The notes under the pieces are model-generated. The model was given only the letters and a program-made list of their open reading frames with translations, was not told the DNA's origin and searched no databases. From positions 1-53,112 of IMG/VR virus record IMGVR_UViG_3300027859_000022: DNA of 53,112 bases. The stretch is one strand, 5' to 3'. The stretch is from a virus. Taxonomy: Duplodnaviria; Caudoviricetes. A program made the translations under genes and the position numbers. Shown piece after piece: positions 37,410 to 52,998 of the stretch (within the stretch, counting starts at the first letter, position 1; each line of letters starts with the position of its first letter).

Positions 37410-37730
37410 TTAAGATTGAAGATCTTTTATGTTTCCAAATATAGATTCGTAAGTAAGCTTACCCTCTGTCGCTTTAATTATTTGATGAGCTTGTTTTATA
37501 GATGGATTTCTATATCCATAACGCCAAGCTTTAATAGACGCTTCAGAACAATCAAAAGTTGATGCAGACTCCTTAACTCCTAAAAACTCAATATAGTCTT
37601 TAAGTGAGTAGTGCTTTACTTTTTTGTTTTGAAACTCTGGCTCATGTCCAGATTTTTTTAGATTTTTTAGTGCTTCATCCGACAGTTTTTTTTGTCGGTG
37701 ATAGTAATTAGCTTTCCAAATTTCATTCAT
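37410..37730 (-). CDS. Cro-like HTH regulator
   Basis: SASTFDCSEASIKAWRYGYRNPS...IIKATEGKLT. Divergent from the Sak4/SSB operon and upstream of the primase. Confidence 0.7.
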   Translation of the reverse strand: MNEIWKANYYHRQKKLSDEALKNLKKSGHEPEFQNKKVKHYSLKDYIEFLGVKESASTFDCSEASIKAWRYGYRNPSIKQAHQIIKATEGKLTYESIFGNIKDLQS

Positions 37731-42724: not shown

Positions 42725-42785
42725 AAACTCTTACCTCTGCTTGTATTATATACACAATTAGTATAATATGTCCACTATTCGTAAT

Positions 42786-42900
42786 TAAGGGGAGATTTTT
42801 TAAGTTGCTCCTCTTAGTTCTAGTGCCGTTCATGTCATTCTCCCAAATTAACGGCTAAGGTTTCGGAGAGAGCCTGGCTAGAAATCTCTCCGCCCTTTCC
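42786..42900 (+). ncRNA. Candidate three-hairpin small RNA
   Basis: Stems 42786-42816, 42825-42855 and 42864-42892 in an ORF-free gap. TATAAT at 42762. Strand inferred from G-U pairs. Confidence 0.5.
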
Positions 42901-42930
42901 TATAGTCGTTAAGTATGTATATAATCTGTT

Positions 42931-43224
42931 ATGGCTTACGAAGTTATAAATTTTACTGAAAAATTAGGGCCGCCTACTACTCAAGAACTTATAAGCAAAT
43001 GCGATAGCATAGTAGATAATCATTGCATAAGAGGAGAGTCGGAACTTATGACTAGCCTTTGTATGCTTTCTTATGCTTTGCAAAAGATAATGCAGATCAC
43101 ACAGTCGGAACAAGAAACAGTACGCCTGGTTAATGAAACTTTAGATGCTCATTTACCTGATAATTACATAGGGGAAGAAGGTATATATTTTACTGCTGAT
43201 TTTGAATTAGATCCTGAAAATTAA
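42931..43224 (+). CDS. Hypothetical protein
   Basis: ORF track. TATAAT about 6 nt upstream suggests a leaderless mRNA. Confidence 0.6.
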   Translation: MAYEVINFTEKLGPPTTQELISKCDSIVDNHCIRGESELMTSLCMLSYALQKIMQITQSEQETVRLVNETLDAHLPDNYIGEEGIYFTADFELDPEN

Positions 43225-43445
43225 TATTGTCGGGTTTTTGTCATGGTGTTTATGACAACGCAAACCCTTTATTTATAAGGCTTTCATTAATATTTTATTT
43301 TTTTCATTTTTGTCATAAGAATAATAAGAAAATACCCCTTAATACTCTAAAGTTCTTGACAACTAAACAGTCGGGAGTGTACCCTTGCTACACACTATTG
43401 GGAGAATGGTGGGAGGAGGTCGTATTAGAATACGCTAAAAAAATC

Positions 43446-43982
43446 ATGGCAGATTATCAAAAGAAACATGATACAACTTACGAAGGCAATCTACTTGCTG
43501 AAAAAGATACTCCTCCTATCGAAACTTGCAACCTAGACAAGAAACTCAATCGCAGACAAAGAATATTCATTTGGACTGCTGTAAATAATCCTAGACTATC
43601 TCTGATCGAGTCGGCTGCGAAGGCAGGTTATAAAGATCCACGACAGGCCGCAAACAAGCTCATGAGCAATCCTTTAATTAGATCCGAATACAATTACCTG
43701 ATGAATGAAGTTAAGAAGAAGTACGAGCTTAATTATGATCGGGCAGTTCAAGATTTGTACGACATTCGGGATAAAGCTTTGGAAGCTGGATCCTTTAATG
43801 CAGCAATCTCAGCTCAGAATAGTTTGCTTAGAGTCGGGGGACTTATTGTTGACCGTAAGGAAGTTATGTTCGGAAAAATTGACCAAATGAGTAGAGAAGA
43901 AGTCGAGGGCCGCTTAGAAACGCTGCTTGGTCAGACAATAGAGGCACAAGTTATTCAAGATAGCACAAGTTATTCAAGATAA
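43446..43982 (+). CDS. terS: Terminase small subunit
   Basis: LNRRQRIF...SAAKAGYK...AANKLMSNP HTH, then LYDIRDKALEAGSFNAAISA and GGLIVDRKE. The C-terminus is altered by a 19-bp duplication; without it the gene ends at 44034. Confidence 0.75.
   Translation: MADYQKKHDTTYEGNLLAEKDTPPIETCNLDKKLNRRQRIFIWTAVNNPRLSLIESAAKAGYKDPRQAANKLMSNPLIRSEYNYLMNEVKKKYELNYDRAVQDLYDIRDKALEAGSFNAAISAQNSLLRVGGLIVDRKEVMFGKIDQMSREEVEGRLETLLGQTIEAQVIQDSTSYSR
43944..43981. repeat. 19-bp exact tandem duplication
   Basis: gcacaagttattcaagata twice. Confidence 0.95.
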
Positions 43983-44009
43983 CGCTTTAGAAAATGATGA
44001 TGTGAGTGA

Positions 44010-44069
44010 TCTAGAAAGTGAAGTAGAGCAATAAAAGGGGAGAAAAAGACAAGTATCACTCTACTTCGG
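44010..44069 (-). ncRNA. Candidate hairpin small RNA with an anti-RBS loop
   Basis: Minus-strand promoter TAGACA-N18-TAAAAT (about 44103-44074). Stem GAAGTAGAG/CTCTACTTC; loop contains UCUUUUUCUCCCC. Confidence 0.5.
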
Positions 44070-44100
44070 TTATATTTTAACTGCTAATTACACCTCTTGT

Positions 44101-44172
44101 CTAACCAAAATAGTAATCAATTAAGACAACTATTCCGATTAATGCAACCAGCACTATTTCCCAAAACACCAT
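44101..44172 (-). CDS. Membrane micropeptide (23 aa)
   Basis: MVFWEIVLVALIGIVVLIDYYFG. Paralogue at 49386. Confidence 0.65.
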   Translation of the reverse strand: MVFWEIVLVALIGIVVLIDYYFG

Positions 44173-44534
44173 TAATGACTAATGAGTGCTTTGATTTTAT
44201 TAACTTGGAAAACCATTTGCAGTTTATCTAAGTCTTTTTTAGAGTGTCCACCGACATTCCATTCGGTAATCTGATCAACTTCTAATCCGTCATCTCCTAG
44301 ATAGTTCTTGCCATTCTTCCAATTATAAATATGTAAGTATGTGCCGTCTTGGAATTCAATATCCCATTCGACATCTGTCTTACCGTCTGAAGTAGATAAA
44401 TCTATCTTCATTGGCTCTCCAAAAGAGTCGATTAACTCTTGATAAGAACATTTTAAATAGCCAATTAAACTTGATCCAAAGATCGCATTTTCATTGACAC
44501 CTTCATTATGTGTAATGAACATATATGGTTTCAT
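44172..44534 (-). CDS. Conserved hypothetical phage protein
   Basis: SSLIGYLKCSYQELIDSFGEP, DGKTDVEW, IYNWK and WNVGG. RBS GGAGGT supports start 44534. Confidence 0.7.
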   Translation of the reverse strand: MKPYMFITHNEGVNENAIFGSSLIGYLKCSYQELIDSFGEPMKIDLSTSDGKTDVEWDIEFQDGTYLHIYNWKNGKNYLGDDGLEVDQITEWNVGGHSKKDLDKLQMVFQVNKIKALISH

Positions 44535-47500
44535 ATTACCTCCTCTGTTTCTAATACTATACCAATCCATTTTACATTCCTCATGCTCTTTAAAGCTTGA
44601 GAAAGTAAACTGAAATCTGCTTGATTATCCACCGAAATCCAAACTATTGGTTTATTACCTAACTTGGCTTTTCTTGGATTGAGATCGCTTTGTATCGTTC
44701 TCAGATACTCTATAGCGTCTTGTACTTGTTTAAGTTTTAAGTTCTGCATTAATCTTTGTAATAAAAATCTTCTGAACATTCTATTAAAAATTTTACTTCT
44801 AATAAGTTATCTAATTCTTCTTGCCACCTTTCTTCTTTTGGCTCTGATTTAATTTGATTATTAGCAACTCCAATTAGACATTTAACAACTGCTAAAGCTG
44901 TTTCTAGTTCCTTGCTTGTTCTTTTGTGTGTAAGCTCTATACTCATGAGATCTCCTCTTTTTTAATAAATATTTCTCTTATGTCCTCTATAAAATATTGC
45001 ATAGTTTCTAAATCAACCTCGACTCCATCTCTTAGTTCAGATATTTGACTATGTACCCATTCAATTTTTTCGTAATCAGTCATGCGACCTTCCTTCCACA
45101 AGTTTAATTGTTCATCAATTATTGATGATAAATCCGAATAAAATTTTAAAGCTTCTTTGCGATCAGAAGTACAAAAACCTTCCATACAATCCATAGTGAA
45201 ATAATTATCTTCGTCAATTTGCAACTCGTCTTTTAGTTTATTTTTAATTACTTGGTCTATATCTTCAGTAATATCCCATTCGACAAAGTATCTAGTCTGT
45301 TTATCTTGACCTATTTCTTGTTCAAAATTACACCAAATTTCTTGATCTATATCTCCATGTTCTTTGTAAGTTCTCATATCTACTCCTCTAAGTAATTATT
45401 GAAACAAATTCTTTGTTATCGTCTTGTTGCACATCATCAATCTCAAGCCATTCATCTGCAAATACAGGTTTATCATTTTCCCAATCGCACACAACAAGTT
45501 TATCTTGCACTTGAATATCGACTATGGCTTTTGGATTGCATTCTTTTAATCTTTTTATTAGTTCGTGTACTCTCATACTTCCTCCTTATCAATTAAAAAC
45601 TCTCCAAATAAATCATTAGCAAGTTCGCTACATTTTTCTGCAAAACAATCTTGGTAATCATCAAGAAAATCTTCCCATTCATCATCACTTAATTCATTTT
45701 CTAGGTCTAAGTGTTCCTTCTTCATATATTGGTAAAGGGTATTACTTAGTTCTTGGTTTAGTTTAGGTATTTCCATTATGCGTCCTCCACTTCAAAAAAA
45801 TTACTAGGATAAGGACTGCATTCTTCAGAAGTATCTATAAAATGCTGTGCCTCCTTTTCACTATCAAAAACATGTTCAAGCAAATAAGAGTCCATAGTGT
45901 CTGTATATCTAATTTTAAATTTAAGTTTACTCATGCTTTCTCCTTTAAATTAATTCTTTATCGTGTTCGTAAGTTCCCTCATTCATGCTTTCCACCCATT
46001 TCCACTTGCCTTCAATCCTGTAAAGAATATCTTTGCAACATGACATACCATGAACAACCAAAGCTATATCGCCACTCCAAGCAGGACAGTCAGGCATATA
46101 CCCTTTTAAAACAACTACATTGGTTAAGCTATTTTCACAAAAATACTCTCCATGCTTATCTTCTATAAATCCATAAATATCATTTAACTCTTTTGCTATC
46201 TCTTTAAGATCATTAATTGTTGGCTCACTCATAAGTTCTCCTTGTTAAAAATTTCTACATTGTGTTCTATTATTTGAAAGTCTGTAATTTTTTCAGACAC
46301 GAGTCCATAGCCATCCCTTTGTTTATTATTTTCTTTTAACCACTCGTCAGGGTTATCTGTGATAGCAACTAAATCTCTATCGCCATAACTGTCATAAAAA
46401 TAAATTAAATATAGTTTCATTGTTCCTCCTCTTGTAAAAAAATATCTTGGTTATCTGATTGAATGCTTTGGTACTTATCGGGATTTTCTTGCATATCTTC
46501 GGAAGTCCATTTCTCTGCTAAATCCCAATCTTCTTCTTCGCTTGTGTTGTAAGGCAAATGATCTTTTGGATCAAATTCTTCTACATCTATAGCAGGATAT
46601 AATCTATCGTTCATATCTTGATCTAAAAGAAGTTCTGCTTTACCTTCGGCTTGTAATAAATCATCTGCTAATACTTTGTAATAGCCAACATAATCTGCCC
46701 TAACTCTAATATAAAAAGTTTTTTGATCTTTCATTTGCAAAACCTCTCAACAATATCTAGTTCTTCTCTAGTTATAGATTGGACTCGTTTAACCATGTAT
46801 AAAACACCATTCCAATCGTATGTATGCTCATCTTCAAAGTTTTCTTCAATTTGCTCATCTTCAAGTCCAAAAAAATCAATGAGTATGTCTTTATCAGTTA
46901 TGATCCCATTCTCATAATCTTTATAACTCATGTGGAAATAATCTGTTTCTCGATGCTCATTCCCACCGTCTAAAATTGCAAAATTTACATATATTAAATT
47001 TTCTGTCATTAGTTCTCCTCTACTGCTCTGTAGTCTGTTTTTCTAGTAATAAACATTTCTGCTTGGTACTTGTGGTTAAAATCAGCTACGGTTTTTCTAG
47101 TTTCAACATCAACCACCACATAAGATGTATCGACTTGGTTTCCTCTTTTCCTTATTACTTCAACTATATTGAACATATCTCCTCCTATTCTTGTTTGTTA
47201 ATAAAATCTTCAATGTAATCAAGAGTTTCATCAGGCGTTGCTCTATCCCAATAAGTTCTTGCTTTGTCCCATTCGTCAGACGACATAATATCTTCACAAC
47301 AATCAAACATTTTGTTGGTTAAATAACATTCGTCTATTTCGCCACACCACCAATCGTCATATTGTTTTTCGGTTTGTTCGTCTGATAAATTTCTAGTATC
47401 AATAATTTGTATTATTGATCTGATTTCTTTTCTTAATAAGCTTTTATTACTGCTCATTATCCTAACTCCTCGTCATTCCACTCGAATTCCCAACCAAGTT

Positions 47501-47887
47501 TAAGGCATAACTTTTTGTAAGTTTTTCTCCCACTTGTAGTCATTGATTGATAATCCCAACCTAGATCGTCAACCAAATTCACAATAATTGTGTATTCCTT
47601 TAATCCTATTTTTGAAATAAGTTTTTTTGCATTTTTATTCATTAGTCCTCCCTCACTATATTGAATTTTTGTTTAAGAAAGTTTTCTACTTCCCAAACTA
47701 TTTCGTCAAAAATTATTTGTCCTTCTGTAGTGAAATGACTAATTCCGTCTTGATCAGAAATAAGTTCGTCAAACTCAGTCAGTCCATTTACCGTTGGTGT
47801 GTTAAATTTTTTTATCATTACACTAGCTGAAAATTCATCAACCAATTCAAGATAATCTTCAGGTTTTAATATCGTTTTGCCACTCAT
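44531..47887 (-). other. Operon of about 14 small, mostly acidic early genes
   Basis: ORFs 44531-44779, 44749-44946, 44943-45377, 45388-45576, 45573-45776, 45776-45934, 45945-46232, 46229-46420, 46417-46740, 46731-47009, 47009-47176, 47185-47457, 47457-47642 and 47642-47887. Mostly overlapping start/stop codons with GGAG RBSs. Confidence 0.75.
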
Positions 47888-47928
47888 TAGTTTAATTCTC
47901 CTTTTAAATAATTGATTACTATTTGTAT

Positions 47929-47956
47929 ATTATAGACACTAATCAAGAGATTACAA
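47929..47956 (-). promoter_or_regulatory. Leftward early promoter
   Basis: TTGTAA-N16-TATAAT on the minus strand, flanked by TTAC-N5-GTAT boxes at 47916 and 47951. Confidence 0.6.
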
Positions 47957-47998
47957 TAAGTATCTATAAAAAATAATAAAAAATATTCAGTCGTTGCT

Positions 47999-48213
47999 AT
48001 CAGAAAAGGAAATCGCATTACCCCTCTCTTTTGATCGCTTACTGTAAAAAAAAGCAGTTTTTCCTAACTGAATAGGATCAACAAAGTCGGCTCACATAAT
48101 ATCTAATCGTTGTAATCAGAAAAGGAAATCGCATTACCCCTCTCTTTTGATCGCTTACTGTAAAAAAAAGCAGTTTTTCCTAACTGAATAGGATCAACAA
48201 AGTCGGCTCACAT
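47999..48213. repeat. 99-bp exact direct repeat (47999-48097 and 48115-48213)
   Basis: atcagaaaaggaaatcgcattacccc...aaagtcggctcacat twice, with a 17-bp spacer. Confidence 0.95.
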
Positions 48214-48407
48214 GTCGGGAGTCGGTTTAGGAATTGTCGGGTAAAGTTTTTGGAGTATATACACATAAGTTTAACACAACTGATCCTTCAGGCCAGGGGA
48301 TCTTTTCTTGGATCTCAAACCTGCCAGGATGATTTTTGGTTTACAAATAGTATAACTAAAAGTTATAAGAATTGTTTACTTTATGTAAAATTAATCTAAA
48401 TAAATAG

Positions 48408-48436
48408 TTGACAAATAGTAAACTGTCTGACATAAT
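48408..48436 (+). promoter_or_regulatory. Early sigma70 promoter
   Basis: TTGACA-N17-CATAAT. Confidence 0.8.
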
Positions 48437-48467
48437 ACACTCATAACTTAAACAAAAGGGAGACATT

Positions 48468-48710
48468 ATGACTAAAAAAGATTACGAACTAATAGCTAAA
48501 GCGATCAAAGATAATACCGAATGGGTGCGAGTTGATGACGGATATGGCGAAACTCTTGAAGAAAGAAAAATACATCCCGTTGATATTATGGTCACTCTAT
48601 CGATTGCTTTTGAAAAAGAAAATCCAAATTTTGACCAATACAAATTTTTTGATGCTTGTAAAAAACCTTATCCTGAAGATTGGAAACCCGAAAAAACTAC
48701 AGAAGAATAA
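48468..48710 (+). CDS. Early hypothetical protein
   Basis: MTKKDYELIAKAI...ENPNFDQYKFFDAC. RBS GGGAG. Confidence 0.8.
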   Translation: MTKKDYELIAKAIKDNTEWVRVDDGYGETLEERKIHPVDIMVTLSIAFEKENPNFDQYKFFDACKKPYPEDWKPEKTTEE

Positions 48711-48726
48711 AGTCGGGAGCAGTCGG

Positions 48727-48751
48727 GGGGAGCTTTTGCTCCCCTTTTTTT
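48727..48751 (+). terminator. Rho-independent terminator
   Basis: GGGGAGC-TTTT-GCTCCCC plus a T tract. Confidence 0.85.
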
Positions 48752-48846
48752 GTTTTAAAAAAAATCTAAAGTACACAATAAAGATCACAAGCTCCTCCAG
48801 CCAGGTAGATCTTGTTCTGCGTGTTCTCCAGGGGTAAAAACAATAG

Positions 48847-48875
48847 TTGACAATTAGTAGCCAAGTAGATATTAT
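48847..48875 (+). promoter_or_regulatory. Early sigma70 promoter
   Basis: TTGACA-N17-TATTAT. Confidence 0.8.
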
Positions 48876-48905
48876 TTAAGTTCACTAATTAACGGAGAAA
48901 AAGAT

Positions 48906-49064
48906 ATGAGTGAGAAACTTAAATATGTATGGAAAGAAAATAAGTACGGGCATTACCGTATATCTATAGTATCTATAGATGGTCTAGAGTTTAATTCTCT
49001 ACGCCAAGCAAAAGTTCATATTAAAAATAAAAAGGCGAGAGCTAGGAGGAGATTGAATGGCTGA
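48906..49064 (+). CDS. Small basic early protein (52 aa)
   Basis: RBS GGAG. MSEKLKYVWKENKYG...FNSLRQAK. Confidence 0.65.
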   Translation: MSEKLKYVWKENKYGHYRISIVSIDGLEFNSLRQAKVHIKNKKARARRRLNG

Positions 49065-49389
49065 TTTAAAAAGTTCAACAGACGAAAGACTTTACGAGAT
49101 GTGTAAAGACATTCAAGAAAACATTCCTAACTATCAATTTCATGATCCAGAAGATGACAACTATCTTGAAGTATATGATGAAAAATATATTGTTGGTATA
49201 GATGGCGAGTTTCAAGACTGTATCCTGATGGTTGCAGGTGGTGGTCCAGTTATATGGATTGATACTTGGAGTCAAGAGGTCCAGGGGTATTGGGGTACGG
49301 ATAAAGTAGCTCTGCCGATATATGACTACGAGCATATAAAAGACCACTTTGAAGAAATGTGCGTGGGTAAAACTATAGGTCTTTCATGA
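49057..49389 (+). CDS. Early hypothetical protein
   Basis: ILMVAGGGPVIWIDT...GYWG. RBS AGGAGGAG. Confidence 0.8.
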   Translation: MADLKSSTDERLYEMCKDIQENIPNYQFHDPEDDNYLEVYDEKYIVGIDGEFQDCILMVAGGGPVIWIDTWSQEVQGYWGTDKVALPIYDYEHIKDHFEEMCVGKTIGLS

Positions 49390-49460
49390 TGATGGAAATG
49401 GAAATAGTTTTACTGACCTTAATAGCTCTAGTAGTGTTGGTTGATTACTTACTAAGCTAG
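49386..49460 (+). CDS. Membrane micropeptide (24 aa)
   Basis: MMMEMEIVLLTLIALVVLVDYLLS. Paralogue at 44101. Confidence 0.65.
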   Translation: MMMEMEIVLLTLIALVVLVDYLLS

Positions 49461-49478
49461 TCGGAGTCGGAGCAATCG

Positions 49479-49509
49479 GGGGCAGTTTTCGGACTGCCCT
49501 CTCTTATTT
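49479..49509 (+). terminator. Rho-independent terminator
   Basis: GGGCAGTT-TTCG-GACTGCCC followed by TCTCTTATTT. Confidence 0.75.
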
Positions 49510-49588
49510 GGATCTGAATATAAACACACAAAAACAACCAGCCAGGTATGCCAGGAGAGGAAGTGGGTTTGGATATGTTTTTGTTTTG

Positions 49589-49617
49589 TTTACAAATAGT
49601 ATATTTACTGTTATAAT
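49589..49617 (+). promoter_or_regulatory. Early sigma70 promoter
   Basis: TTTACA-N17-TATAAT with an extended TG. Confidence 0.8.
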
Positions 49618-49639
49618 AAAATCTTTACGGAGAAACATT

Positions 49640-49939
49640 ATGAAACTATTAAAAGATGCTAAAGCTAATTTGACTGACGAGCTTATAGATGTTGTTCTTA
49701 AATCAGAAACTGATGATAAAGAATATGATGTTGGTTATTACTTTGGAGTTAAGACAGTAATTCAAAATAAAGAGATAAAAGATGCCGTAGCAGGTATTAG
49801 CTATATAGTTGGAGAGGTTGAAGAGAAACATTATGCTGAACATTATAATGTTGAAAATCCTAACGACATTCCAACAGAAGAACTGCAAGAGCATGTTTAC
49901 AAATATATCAGAATTCTTGTAGATAATTTTGGAGCTTAG
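49640..49939 (+). CDS. Early hypothetical protein
   Basis: RBS GGAG and ACATTATG start just after the promoter. Confidence 0.75.
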   Translation: MKLLKDAKANLTDELIDVVLKSETDDKEYDVGYYFGVKTVIQNKEIKDAVAGISYIVGEVEEKHYAEHYNVENPNDIPTEELQEHVYKYIRILVDNFGA

Positions 49940-49940
49940 T

Positions 49941-50195
49941 ATGTCGGAATACCTAGATAGAATAAACCATCACGAGTTTGATATGAAGATTGGACTTAAG
50001 CAAGGCACATTTGAAATGTTCGGACACATCAACTCTGATGGGGATATTGACTACGATTTCTTCTTAGACCAAAAGCATTTAGATTGTGGCTGTCTTATGA
50101 TTTCGGTTGCAGATAGTAGCGAGTCGTATTGGTGGGAATGGATTGTTTGCGATATTTTAAAAACATACGATTTCAATAAAAAAAGATTTCTTTAG
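49941..50195 (+). CDS. Early hypothetical protein (paralogue A)
   Basis: LKQGTFEMF...YDFFLDQ shared with the 50370 gene. Confidence 0.75.
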   Translation: MSEYLDRINHHEFDMKIGLKQGTFEMFGHINSDGDIDYDFFLDQKHLDCGCLMISVADSSESYWWEWIVCDILKTYDFNKKRFL

Positions 50196-50210
50196 TCGGA
50201 GTCGGAGGTC

Positions 50211-50241
50211 GGGCAACTCTTAGGGGTTGTCCTTTCTTTTT
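50211..50241 (+). terminator. Rho-independent terminator
   Basis: GGGCAACTC-TTAG-GGGTTGTCC plus a T-rich tail. Confidence 0.75.
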
Positions 50242-50315
50242 GCCTGAAGGATATATATACACAAATAATCACAAATTTATGATCCAGGCAAGTTGTTGTG
50301 CTAGTTCTCTCTAAG

Positions 50316-50344
50316 TTTACTTTTAGTAATAACCAGGTTATAAT
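50316..50344 (+). promoter_or_regulatory. Early sigma70 promoter
   Basis: TTTACT-N17-TATAAT. Confidence 0.75.
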
Positions 50345-50369
50345 AAATAAAACTTAAATGGAGAATAAT

Positions 50370-50675
50370 ATGAGTGAGGAGTATCAAGACTATATTGTTG
50401 ACGGTTTGCCTGAATACAATTTTAAGCTAGAACTTAAACAGGGGACATTTGAAATGTTTGCAACTATCAATAGCTATGGCTTTATGGACTATAACTTCTT
50501 CCTGGATCAACAGCTTTTAGATGGTGGTGTGTACGGAGGATATTGGTGTAAGTCAGATAGCTATGGCGACTTCAATGAAAGTGATGAGAGCAGTCTTTAT
50601 GAGCAAGAGTGGGGTTATCTCTGCTCATTCGTTCTTAAAGATTACGACTTTGAAAATAAAACTTGGGGTGTGTAA
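50370..50675 (+). CDS. Early hypothetical protein (paralogue B)
   Basis: LKQGTFEMF...YNFFLDQ...LKDYDF. RBS GGAG. Confidence 0.75.
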   Translation: MSEEYQDYIVDGLPEYNFKLELKQGTFEMFATINSYGFMDYNFFLDQQLLDGGVYGGYWCKSDSYGDFNESDESSLYEQEWGYLCSFVLKDYDFENKTWGV

Positions 50676-51013
50676 TGACGACAAAAGTGTATTGTGATGA
50701 ATGCGATAAAGTTTTACATGTAAATTGTGCAGGTGGTGTCGGAACAGAAGTAGATGTGGAGATGCCAAATGCTGATTATGTTTTAAGGATTGGAGATTTT
50801 GACACAGATTTATACTTGTGTCCAGCTTGGAATACGAATGACTTTCATGTCTGTCTTGATTGCTACTACGAGAAGTATGTGTGCAAAGAAGGTTGGGTAG
50901 ATGTGTCGGCTCAACTGTTTGAGTTCATGCAAGAGATTGGAATGGAAGAACAGTATGCAGATACTAGAAAACACCTGACTGATATGATCCAGAGGGGTAT
51001 TGACAAAAAGTAG
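50675..51013 (+). CDS. Cys-rich putative Zn-binding early protein
   Basis: CDEC and CLDC motifs. TAATG overlap with the previous gene. Confidence 0.7.
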   Translation: MTTKVYCDECDKVLHVNCAGGVGTEVDVEMPNADYVLRIGDFDTDLYLCPAWNTNDFHVCLDCYYEKYVCKEGWVDVSAQLFEFMQEIGMEEQYADTRKHLTDMIQRGIDKK

Positions 51014-51027
51014 AAAGTAGCTATACT
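51000..51027 (+). promoter_or_regulatory. Sigma70 promoter driving a non-coding transcript
   Basis: TTGACA-N16-TATACT. Confidence 0.75.
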
Positions 51028-51033
51028 AACTTG

Positions 51034-51110
51034 GTCAATAATAGCTTTTGCTATTCTTGGTCATAATGTCCCAAATTGAAACCTCTAGTCTCGGCTAGGG
51101 GTTTCTCTTT
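51034..51110 (+). ncRNA. Candidate antisense small RNA (about 75 nt)
   Basis: Own promoter, hairpin 51040-51055, linker GGUCAUAAUGUCCC, terminator hairpin 51078-51105 plus UCUUU. No ORF of useful length. Confidence 0.7.
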
Positions 51111-51289
51111 ATGGGCGAAGGTAAGTCGGCAGTCGGGTGTCGGGTTTTCTTTTGTACGGGATTTACAGGGGAGCTGGGGTATGTCCACAATATAAACACA
51201 ATATTTTTTTTAGGATCCTGTGGGTAAATTTGGGGATTGGGGTTTGAAAAGACAGGCCAGACTTATTTAAATTATTTTTGCTTTGAGGG

Positions 51290-51318
51290 TTTACATTAAG
51301 TAATCTATTTGTTATTGT
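51290..51318 (+). promoter_or_regulatory. Early sigma70 promoter
   Basis: TTTACA-N17-TATTGT with an extended TG. Confidence 0.65.
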
Positions 51319-51347
51319 GTGCTTATAAACAATTAAAGGAGGACATT

Positions 51348-51692
51348 ATGGTTTATATAAGAGAATGGGAAGTAGAAAAAGTATTTCAATCTTTATTGTC
51401 ATTAAATGATGAAAAGAAATATTTACTTTTAAATGATTATAGAGAGTTGCAAAAAATTCAAAGTGATTATGCAAAAGAAATAAAACCACTTGAAAACAAA
51501 ATAAAAAAACTAGAAGAAAAAATAAATCAAAAAAGAACTACTGTATCTCAATATAGAAGAAGTTATATGTGTAGGCATTTAAAACAATTAGATTTGCCTG
51601 TTTCAAAAATGGAAAAATTTGTGCATGACAGTTTTACTATTTTGGAAGAACAAATAAGACTTTTAGCTTTTAAAAAAGAGGAGGATAAGTAA
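51348..51692 (+). CDS. Early coiled-coil protein
   Basis: RBS AAGGAGG and ACATTATG start. Confidence 0.75.
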   Translation: MVYIREWEVEKVFQSLLSLNDEKKYLLLNDYRELQKIQSDYAKEIKPLENKIKKLEEKINQKRTTVSQYRRSYMCRHLKQLDLPVSKMEKFVHDSFTILEEQIRLLAFKKEEDK

Positions 51693-52081
51693 TGAAAGGA
51701 TATATTATTGATAGTAATTTAAAGGGCGTTTTTCCAATAGATATTAGAAGTGATATGGATTACAAAGACATCTATAAGTATTTACATACAGATGTTAAGC
51801 GAGTAAGTGCTTTTGATGCAGTTCGGGTAAGAGGTACTAATGATTTGATTTATGTTGATGACGAGGGTTTATTAACTAGGGAGAATTATATGTTTGTTTT
51901 TGATCACTTGGACAAACATCATCTATTCGGGAATGGCTTAATACTTGGTACTGATACTGAAGGAGAAAGCATGACTCCCGAAATGTCATTAAATTGGTAT
52001 AGAGATAAAATTACCTTTGCAGATGAGTTGGTTTTGTGTGAGGACTATTTAGTTCCTCCTGTCTTTGTGCCTATTAAATAA
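51692..52081 (+). CDS. DUF3846-like protein
   Basis: DLIYVDDEGLL and LFGNGLILGTDTEGES. Confidence 0.65.
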   Translation: MKGYIIDSNLKGVFPIDIRSDMDYKDIYKYLHTDVKRVSAFDAVRVRGTNDLIYVDDEGLLTRENYMFVFDHLDKHHLFGNGLILGTDTEGESMTPEMSLNWYRDKITFADELVLCEDYLVPPVFVPIK

Positions 52082-52083
52082 AT

Positions 52084-52113
52084 TTTACTTTTAGTATCTA
52101 CTCGTGGTAAGCT
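52084..52113 (+). promoter_or_regulatory. Early sigma70 promoter
   Basis: TTTACT-N18-TAAGCT with an extended TG. Confidence 0.55.
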
Positions 52114-52145
52114 TACCTTATTAACTAATCAATTAAGGAGACATT

Positions 52146-52388
52146 ATGAGAGTTAAAAAACTATTAATAAAAGTAGAGTTAGAGAATGGTGCCGAATGTA
52201 ATTTCGTTGAGTATCAAGCTTTTAGCTTAGTAATAAATGGCACACCTTATATTGTGAACGGAGAGTTCGATACTATCGATATGGAACGAGTTGTTCGCAT
52301 GACTGAGGACAGCATAAGGAGAGAGGGCAACACCATTGTTAATGGGCAAGTCCAAAATCCTAGATTGGAGAATGATTTAGACAGCTAG
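52146..52388 (+). CDS. Early hypothetical protein
   Basis: RBS AAGGAG and ACATTATG start. Confidence 0.75.
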   Translation: MRVKKLLIKVELENGAECNFVEYQAFSLVINGTPYIVNGEFDTIDMERVVRMTEDSIRREGNTIVNGQVQNPRLENDLDS

Positions 52389-52407
52389 AACAATTCTCCC
52401 TAGTTGG

Positions 52408-52442
52408 AAGAGTCAAGCAGAAATGCTTGGCTCTTTTTTTTT
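52408..52442 (+). terminator. Rho-independent terminator
   Basis: AAGAGTCAAGCA-GAAA-TGCTTGGCTCTT plus a T tract. Confidence 0.85.
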
Positions 52443-52615
52443 GGGACTCTTATTGGTCGGGAAAAATGATGCAGGTCGGCAGCTCTCTGGGTCGGCACCC
52501 CAAAATGGTATATATACACAAAGGTAGGTACAAGCACAATAATACACACAAACAATAACAATCATTTTAACAATTCTTCTTTTTGGGTTATATTATGCTC
52601 ATGTATGGCATAAGT

Positions 52616-52669
52616 AGTAGGCTCAGACTTTTCCTAAACTCTTCTCCTCTAGATTTGTTTGGGCCTACT
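52616..52669 (+). ncRNA. Hairpin with a large pyrimidine-rich loop in the leader of 52687
   Basis: 13-bp stem AGTAGGCTCAGAC/GTTTGGGCCTACT with two G-U pairs. Loop contains AAACUCUUCUCCUCU. Confidence 0.5.
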
Positions 52670-52686
52670 CACTACGGAGTAAAGAT

Positions 52687-52998
52687 ATGGAAAACATGAT
52701 GAATCCAGGAATGGGTATGAACGAAGAATTAGAAACTTTATCAAGTCAAGATATGGATGAGGCAAAAGCAGCTATGGGCGAACTCATCAATATGATCGCA
52801 GAAATGAAAGCTGCTGGCATGTCAGATGAAGAAATAAATCAATTTTTAAGTGAGTTTGGTTTGACTTTAGAAGAAGTTTTAATGGCAGACCAAGCATTAA
52901 AAAATCCTGAAATGTTAAATGATCCTAACATGATGGGTGGACAGCCTGAAATGGCTCAAAACAATCAAATTCAAGCACAATTAGATGAATTAATGTAA
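52687..52998 (+). CDS. Acidic Met-rich hypothetical protein
   Basis: ORF track. RBS GGAG. Confidence 0.75.
   Translation: MENMMNPGMGMNEELETLSSQDMDEAKAAMGELINMIAEMKAAGMSDEEINQFLSEFGLTLEEVLMADQALKNPEMLNDPNMMGGQPEMAQNNQIQAQLDELM

Follow-up and report, generated by a model that had tools for sequence, protein, structure and literature searches.

The question raised by the viral DNA of IMG/VR record IMGVR_UViG_3300027859_000022 (53,112 nucleotides (nt), analysed over its full length and hereafter called the window) is whether five non-coding hairpins, E1 (42786-42892), E2 (44020-44067, minus strand), E3 (51034-51110), E4 (52382-52406) and E5 (52613-52673), act together as small RNAs that block the ribosome-binding sites (RBSs) of the phage's own genes. 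Such a network had been proposed in an earlier note on this DNA because the hairpins carry CU-rich stretches that resemble anti-Shine-Dalgarno sequences. Our tentative reading, in which we place a little less than even confidence, is that the five elements are not one system, that E3 is a trans-acting antisense small RNA (sRNA), and that the other four are ordinary or unsettled cis elements. Judged from the window and its relatives, E3 is a plausible c4-like antisense RNA, so that the anti-RBS idea survives for one RNA only, and a credible new example of an already known kind of regulator. Relatives here are related metagenomic loci (given labels such as L004 or L085 where they must be told apart), with 10-19 loci per element in which the hairpin is present at 82-100% identity.

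A candidate antisense RNA and its predicted targets

E3 has the layout of an sRNA of about 75 nt on the plus strand, with a 5' hairpin (51035-51060), an unpaired seed (approximately 51061-51077, UCAUAAUGUCCCAAAUU), a terminator hairpin (51078-51105) and a weak U tract. It is preceded by a promoter at 51000-51027 (11 of 12 matches in the promoter scan) that consists of the -35 box TTGACA (51000-51005), a 16-nt spacer and the -10 box TATACT (51022-51027). To follow these features across relatives we used 16 distinct variants from IMG/VR viral and metagenome contigs, collected with a search pattern that left the seed free. The -35 box and the spacer length are fixed in all of them and the -10 box reads TATACT, TAATAT, TAGTAT, TACTAT or TATTAT, always keeping TAnnnT. 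In L085-type relatives the homology begins at the -35 box (from 50997), and because it starts exactly there E3 fits a self-contained module. The earlier note had credited two of the elements with clear promoters of their own; that of E3 is supported by these comparisons, whereas the plus-strand promoter of E1 is not conserved in relatives.

The body of E3, TCATAATGTCCCAAA, is invariant in 16 of 16 variants even though the search pattern did not constrain it, while the discriminator, the linker following CCCAAA and the terminator vary. The seed itself was identical in all 9 viral and 18 metagenome stretches retrieved with the open-seed pattern. Four variants that we folded share the same architecture (z -4.7 to -5.6), and in each of the four the seed is unpaired in both the minimum free energy (MFE) and the centroid structure. 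Three types of terminator stem occur, 12-14 bp long and differing by paired insertions or deletions, all of which fold; the hairpin qualifies as an intrinsic terminator, with a T tract weaker than that following E4, and we assign it to the plus strand because its T.G pairs fit that strand only. Thus, in silico, E3 possesses transcription signals of its own, namely a conserved promoter and a terminator kept through paired changes. The sigma-70-type promoter would drive E3 as an independent sRNA of about 75 nt ending at the intrinsic terminator. A small peptide encoded in E3 was also considered and rejected, as its frame shifts with an A insertion in relatives.

The E3 seed, UCAUAAUGUCC, is complementary to a start-site cassette, GGAG(N)ACAUUAUG, which comprises the Shine-Dalgarno (SD) sequence, spacer and AUG and heads the first genes of four rightward units (48468, 49640, 51348 and 52146). 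Pairing was evaluated against 88 curated gene starts (-30 to +15) and later again with leaders lengthened to -65. The best energy of E3, -22.6 kcal/mol, was reached by 1 of 200 mononucleotide shuffles, 4 of 1000 dinucleotide shuffles and 2 of 120 shuffles in the long-leader run, and the 11-nt perfect run of its linker, CUUGGUCAUAAUGUCCCAAAUUG, was matched by none of 200. Complementarity to SD and AUG within an unpaired region therefore exceeds chance for E3, with the caveat that 37 of 1588 intergenic windows do equally well, as discussed below. The best predicted target is the start of gene 48468-48710, which stands first behind a promoter at 48408-48436; there E3 could form 14 contiguous pairs plus 2 across the SD, spacer, AUG and codons 2-3 (48452-48476, plus strand); this start is the top non-self E3 site among 10,616 windows on both genome strands. 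The other predicted targets, likewise on the plus strand, are the starts of genes 52146-52388 (52129-52150, cassette GGAGACAUUAUG, duplex of -16.7 kcal/mol), 51348-51692 (51340-51352, cassette GGAGGACAUUAUG, -15.0 kcal/mol) and 49640-49939 (49625-49642, cassette GGAGAAACAUUAUG).

The cassette is over-represented in this DNA, ACATTATG occurring 10 times against an expected 2.57 +/- 1.71, with 4 copies at rightward gene starts. It is retained at gene 52146 in 10 of the 11 related loci examined, and relatives keep it even ahead of a non-homologous gene (L085, position 9661). Among the loci compared it is confined to the E3-bearing clade, with no occurrence in approximately 150 more distant loci. 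Two wider searches added nothing to the family: an initial 14-mer scan of viral contigs gave chiefly chance matches and no further members, and distant relatives, searched de novo for anti-start elements, yielded only start regions of opposite-strand genes.

Transcription of E3, its pairing in vivo and the resulting repression are what we infer from these features. The unpaired seed, UCAUAAUGUCC(C), would pair in trans with the cassettes of genes 48468, 49640, 51348 and 52146, mask their SD and AUG and so lower translation of the four unit-first genes, gene 48468 being the strongest predicted target. If E3 is expressed and represses the cassette genes, it would be the first regulator of its kind among uncultured marine relatives of the Pelagibacter phages, and it would explain why an identical SD-spacer-AUG cassette stands before unrelated genes of mosaic genomes. 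In the open literature we found no paper joining the terms 'pelagiphage' and 'sRNA'. The main text of the paper on the transcriptome of phage HTVC027P does not mention antisense, non-coding or small RNA, intergenic regions, promoters or terminators (PMC12753301).

To our knowledge, phage RNAs that block the RBSs of their own phage are known only from a few well-studied temperate coliphages. The c4 RNA is cut out of a longer operon transcript, unlike E3, which has its own promoter and terminator and is predicted to recognise a cassette shared by several genes instead of one antirepressor mRNA. The sar and OOP RNAs are transcribed opposite their targets and are thus cis-encoded, whereas E3 is located 1-2.6 kb away from its predicted targets, to which it is complementary only in part (11-16 bp). 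In Staphylococcus aureus, RNAIII and the Rsa family use C-rich (UCCC/CUCC) hairpin-loop motifs to pair with SD sequences; unpaired UCCC is likewise found in E1, E2, E3 and E4, although neither the phage nor its host, likely an alphaproteobacterium, is related to S. aureus and the pairing of E1, E2 and E4 is at chance level. Points of likeness are found in passages of a review that describe c4 of phages P1 and P7 as a small phage RNA that blocks translation of a phage mRNA by pairing, through its exposed sequences, with the ribosome-binding region, and sar of P22 and OOP of lambda as phage RNAs of 68-77 nt that lower the expression of a phage mRNA (PMC12197685); a table of the same review lists sar as acting in trans. 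As described there, E3 resembles c4 in its proposed mode of pairing over the ribosome-binding region, and resembles sar and OOP as a short phage RNA with predicted pairing to phage mRNA. Compared with Rfam, E3 matches no family, either at the gathering threshold or at E<=5; the hits obtained at E<=5 were all sub-threshold and at chance level.

The other four hairpins

All five hairpins fold better than 200 dinucleotide shuffles (z -3.5 to -5.7), which bears out their existence as first described. On the plus strand E1 folds at -36.2 kcal/mol (z -3.6; minus strand z -1.5), and E2 on the minus strand at -14.4 kcal/mol (z -5.7); the values are -25.4 kcal/mol (z -5.5) for E3, -26.1 kcal/mol (z -5.2) for E4 together with its terminator and -18.5 kcal/mol (z -3.8) for E5. 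E2 and E4 are better preserved in their cores (96-100% and 97-100% identical, respectively) than in their flanks. The CU-rich stretches are equally real, with TTCTCC at 42838, 52394 and 52642 on the plus strand and GGAGAA at 44039 corresponding to the minus-strand loop of E2, so that the hexamer UUCUCC is common to the loops of E1, E2, E4 and E5.

The statement that complementarity runs over 9-14 nt of the RBSs of distant genes holds up beyond chance for E3 alone. Among the 88 start regions, the best energy of the element was equalled by 98 of 200 shuffles for E1, 117 of 200 for E2, 115 of 200 for E4 and 21 of 200 for E5, and with leaders to -65 by 10, 87, 94 and 35 of 120, respectively. A partial exception among these four is the longest run of E2, 11 nt, which only 9 of 200 shuffles matched. 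The original caveat that a common GGAG makes part of each match a chance event hence applies fully to E1, E2, E4 and E5, and CU-rich loops that 'match' SDs are to be expected by chance in an AT-rich genome using GGAG-type sites. Family-wide enrichment of TTCTCC in hairpin loops was considered and rejected, since 41 of its 755 distinct occurrences in 175 family loci fall in such loops (5.4%), inside the range of 1.0-6.1% for 19 permuted hexamers. The motif CAU..CCCAAAUU, said to be shared by E1 and E3, does occur in the window, but relatives of E1 and of E3 alike show variation in the AAAUU half.

E1, a hairpin of 107 nt (42786-42892, plus strand), belongs to the divergent control region at 42725-42930. 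It is flanked by a leftward promoter, conserved and on the minus strand (-35 at 42774-42769, -10 at 42750-42745), and by gene 42931. The plus-strand TATAAT upstream of it (42762-42767), which follows a 15-nt spacer, is TATATC in L014 and L011. An alignment of 11 distinct sequences gives 37 pairs with 96.6% of 407 cells paired; the stem has no compensatory changes, five one-sided changes and four pairs with breaks. Over 11 nt the E1 loop complements the G-rich leader box of the small-terminase-like gene (-23.6 kcal/mol, equalled by 10 of 120 shuffles), and in relatives the substitutions of loop and box do not match each other. Two descriptions of E1 are equally good, a structured stretch or an inverted pair of protein-binding sites, one beside each divergent promoter. 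The inverted arms are at 42789-42804 and 42877-42892; a repressor-like protein of 106 aa is encoded at 37410-37730. Coding alternatives were ruled out for both strands, a peptide from TTG 42805 because this codon is TTA in the L085 group, and a minus-strand frame of 51 aa from 42833 because a 1-nt insertion breaks it in L012 and L013. As a separate observation, the 5' stem segment of E1 at 42805-42827 (GCUCCUCUUAG...), which is paired within E1, gives with the start of gene 49057 a predicted duplex of -27.7 kcal/mol, the strongest start-region duplex predicted among intergenic windows outside repeats and terminators. The neighbouring gene 42931-43224 has a conserved TATAAT that ends 6 nt before its ATG, and no SD (region 42911-42933), which suggests from sequence that its mRNA is leaderless.

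E2 (44020-44067, minus strand) has a 14-bp stem and a 20-nt loop, CUUGUCUUUUUCUCCCCUUU, and lies between convergent genes in the gap at 43983-44171. In 13 of 13 distinct close relatives the small-terminase-like open reading frame (ORF) stops at a TAA that corresponds to window positions 44031-44033, within the hairpin, which there overlaps the last codons and stop of the gene. These alignments place E2, as a conserved hairpin, at the 3' terminus of the small-terminase-like gene. The window differs by a 19-nt tandem duplication (43945-43982), absent from all 13 distinct close relatives, which shifts the frame and truncates the ORF; in those relatives it ends 51 nt further on. At 44057 and 44058, the two substituted stem positions, a minus-strand G.U pair is replaced by a Watson-Crick pair. 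Elsewhere among the lineages most stem mismatches are of the C.A type on the plus strand, with G.T in two lineages, a mixture that does not single out a working strand for E2. Several distant lineages have a hairpin at this place too, whose stem is unrelated and whose loop is of the GGGAGA type, and in some of these analogues the loop contains the SD and ATG of a frame of about 20 codons. A promoter-like site on the minus strand, TAGACA-18-TAAAAT (44074-44103, 10 of 12 matches in the scan), would start transcription at E2; the region 44073-44106 has no variable site in 12 distinct close relatives, an invariance that is uninformative because the evolutionary distances are so short. A relationship of the E2 minus strand to Y RNA (RF00019) was rejected, as it scored 20.9 bits against a gathering threshold of 38; the alignment is driven by the UUUUCUCCCCUU tract, and its terminal helix has deletions and non-standard pairs.

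E4 and E5 both lie within mRNAs. E4 (52382-52406, plus strand, loop AACAAUUCUCC) spans the stop codon of gene 52146-52388 and is followed directly by the intrinsic terminator of this rightward unit (52406-52445, plus strand), whose stem-loop (52406-52437) has a 13-14-bp stem and a GAAA loop and precedes a run of 9 T. E4 is 100% identical in 9 of 10 related loci, its flanks being 84-88% identical, and the terminator stem shows a compensatory A-U to G-C change in L011. The simplest reading of E4 is the 3' end of a transcription unit; an RNA derived from that 3' end is conceivable. Both this hairpin at 52406-52445 and the 3' hairpin of E3 resemble known intrinsic terminators in having a GC-rich stem followed by a T run.

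E5 (52613-52673, plus strand) has 16 pairs and a 28-nt loop carrying CUCUUCUCCUCUAG. It begins about 10 nt past the predicted start of the promoter-like sequence 52567-52596 and ends 14 nt ahead of the AUG of gene 52687; since this gene, an ORF wrapping the genome ends and the large terminase gene succeed each other, E5 leads the structural operon. In six distinct close sequences all 96 pair cells are standard, with one compensatory change (U-A to C-G) and three one-sided changes. Terminase relatives at about 76% identity (L258, L255 and L257) have hairpins at the E5 position with unrelated stems and a loop containing UCUUCUCC or UUUCUCC. E5 thus combines pairs kept by compensation with the same position in diverged relatives, and because its stem is kept and has these positional analogues we regard it as a conserved leader structure and not as a free small RNA. 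A probable function for E5, close to the start of the structural-operon mRNA, is to affect the stability of the message or to bind a factor. In adjoining a predicted mRNA 5' end, E5 is similar to 5'-terminal stabilising stem-loops; E5 and E2 differ from terminators and stabilising stem-loops in their large loops (20-37 nt) and in a conserved pyrimidine motif that neither role needs. Homologues of the E1 or E5 type were not found by blastn in the more distant terminase relatives. Upstream of the structural-operon promoter, a CA-rich stretch (52500-52615) is almost invariant in close relatives and has a box, CAATAATACACA, in common with relatives of 76% terminase identity (L258, 2340-2420); it may be a phage-specific late-promoter element.

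Competing readings of the hairpins

Several observations weigh against a trans-acting role for E3. The seed (in 16 variants) and the cassette core are both invariant, which amounts to co-conservation and offers no variation from which covariation could be read, and the long pairing with gene 48468 is not conserved, its SD side being GGGAA or GGAA in L081, L082, L011 and L004; in L011 and L004 the codons past the AUG differ too, which reduces the duplex to a core of some 9 bp. Of the 1588 intergenic windows of 23 nt, 37 (2.3%) reach -22.6 kcal/mol or lower with some start region, most of them repeat copies or GC-rich terminator stems, and the starts of genes 52146 (-16.7 kcal/mol) and 51348 (-15.0 kcal/mol) are outside the top 40 windows genome-wide. 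At the 5' end of the tested segment, four to five bases (CUUGG) pair within a weak outer helix of the MFE structure, the terminator is followed by a weak U tract (UCUCUUUAU), and the p-values of E3 need an approximately five-fold correction because five elements were tested. Finally, read on its antisense strand, E3 resembles the cassette with a 9-codon frame after it, so an inverted duplication may have left the complementarity behind as a relic; an inverted cassette copy would also be a plausible origin for an antisense regulator. An alternative is that none of the five elements acts in trans, which we consider rather unlikely. On that account E3 would be an inverted-cassette relic beside a terminator, a conserved DNA site, or a cis-acting leader or attenuator whose anti-start segment folds back onto the start of gene 51348 in read-through transcripts, and the other four would be terminators, stabilising stem-loops or protein-binding sites. 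It is in line with the resemblance of the E3 minus strand, GGGACATTATGACCAAG, to the start of gene 48468, with the intergenic windows that pair as strongly, with a cassette start directly 3' of E3 in the window, L085, L084, L086 and L004, and with the GTCGG arrays and further promoter that follow E3 as they follow other terminators. However, about 38 nt of E3 are invariant in the 16 variants amid varying flanks, which is unlike a neutral relic, and the promoter has been retained through five different -10 hexamers; an obligatory cis partner is argued against by L081, where the unit 3' of E3 has no cassette. We prefer, with the reserve stated at the outset, E3 as a trans-acting antisense sRNA.

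The proposal that all five hairpins are trans-acting anti-RBS sRNAs, which together would turn off early and replication genes, or else silence a relative that superinfects, is highly improbable. It could draw on the presence of UUCUCC in four loops, complementary to the common SD variant GGAGAA, on the conservation of the loops, those of E2 and E5 keeping their motifs in distant lineages with differing stems, and on the 11-nt match of the E1 loop to the small-terminase-like gene leader. Yet four of the five loops pair with start regions no better than shuffled sequences, TTCTCC is not enriched in loops over permuted hexamers, E4 and E5 sit inside mRNAs (at a 3' end and in a 5' leader), and E1 has neither a conserved promoter nor covariation between its loop and the leader; a five-member network is not what the data describe. 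The same hexamer can also be explained as a shared UUCUCC(C) motif of the E1, E2, E4 and E5 loops that is read by one RNA-binding factor or by the 30S subunit or S1, or else as loops that pair with the G-rich leader box at 43398-43419 and so link early units to packaging and late expression. We think this unlikely. In its favour, the hexamer is identical in four conserved loops and persists in distant E5 and E2 analogues, the core of the E5 loop is conserved while its 5' part varies, lineages down to 71% protein identity retain the leader box of the small-terminase-like gene, and predicted energies with this leader are -23.6 (E1), -19.0 (E5), -16.3 (E2) and -9.7 kcal/mol (E4). These energies are nevertheless within the shuffle range, there is no covariation, the box becomes GGGTAAAGTGGGGGTAG in distant lineages with no matching loop change seen, and the hexamer, which lacks family-wide loop enrichment, was picked after seeing the data. 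A broader scheme, in which the pyrimidine loops (UUCUCC/UCCC) of E1, E2, E4 and E5 together with E3 form one RNA-level control layer in an abundant marine phage group, strikes us as very unlikely; if true, anti-SD-like loops on long stems would pair with boxes rich in purines, or titrate them, among them the deeply conserved G-rich leader of the small-terminase-like gene and the cassette, and would time the passage from early units to packaging and structural genes.

Genome context and further non-coding features

The 53,112-base window is the whole assembly and has a GC content of 34.4%. An ORF starting at 52998 overruns the window end and resumes in frame at base 3, and because it continues across the ends the genome is circular or permuted; the window is a complete 53-kb phage genome. 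It encodes the tailed-phage proteins large terminase, portal, primase/helicase, Sak4-like annealing protein, SSB, C5 methyltransferase and exonuclease. The large terminase is 58-63% identical to those of the Pelagibacter phages HTVC027P and HTVC023P and of phage DSL-LC04; megablast gave no close match among deposited phages. No tRNA was found in the window and no Rfam family at the gathering threshold, and none of ten proteins, comprising the predicted E3 targets and their neighbours, matched a PHROG family. Gene blocks switch direction alternately along the genome, and a rightward block of small ORFan genes (48468-52998) is split into short units by promoter-like and terminator-like sites.

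The pentamer GTCGG is frequent within 48086-52495, with 45 copies against 14.0 +/- 3.3 expected, 33 of them on the plus strand. It forms tandem arrays with a period of 6-7 nt just before or after the intrinsic terminators of rightward units, in clusters at 48202-48240, 48712-48726, 49460-49470, 50195-50212, 51125-51143 and 52456-52495. Relatives retain the copies but differ in the spacers, and distant terminase relatives have (GGGTGTC)n arrays at comparable places, that of L257 being G-quadruplex-like. Candidate roles for the GTCGG arrays are regulator sites for the next promoter or a structure that stops read-through.

Every lineage down to 71% protein identity retains a 220-nt non-coding region (43225-43445) that separates the 97-aa gene from the small-terminase-like gene. 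Within it are TTGTCA repeats, a box ATTTTATTTTTTTCATTTTTGTCA, a promoter-like TTGAC-18-TAYCCT and the G-rich leader box (TTGGGAGAATGGTGGGAGGAGG in the window); the region could serve packaging or regulation as a site, or be a structured leader. Two direct copies of about 110 bp (47990-48215) are found in the large divergent intergenic region, and in each of them a GTCGG accompanies the start region of a small frame on the minus strand.

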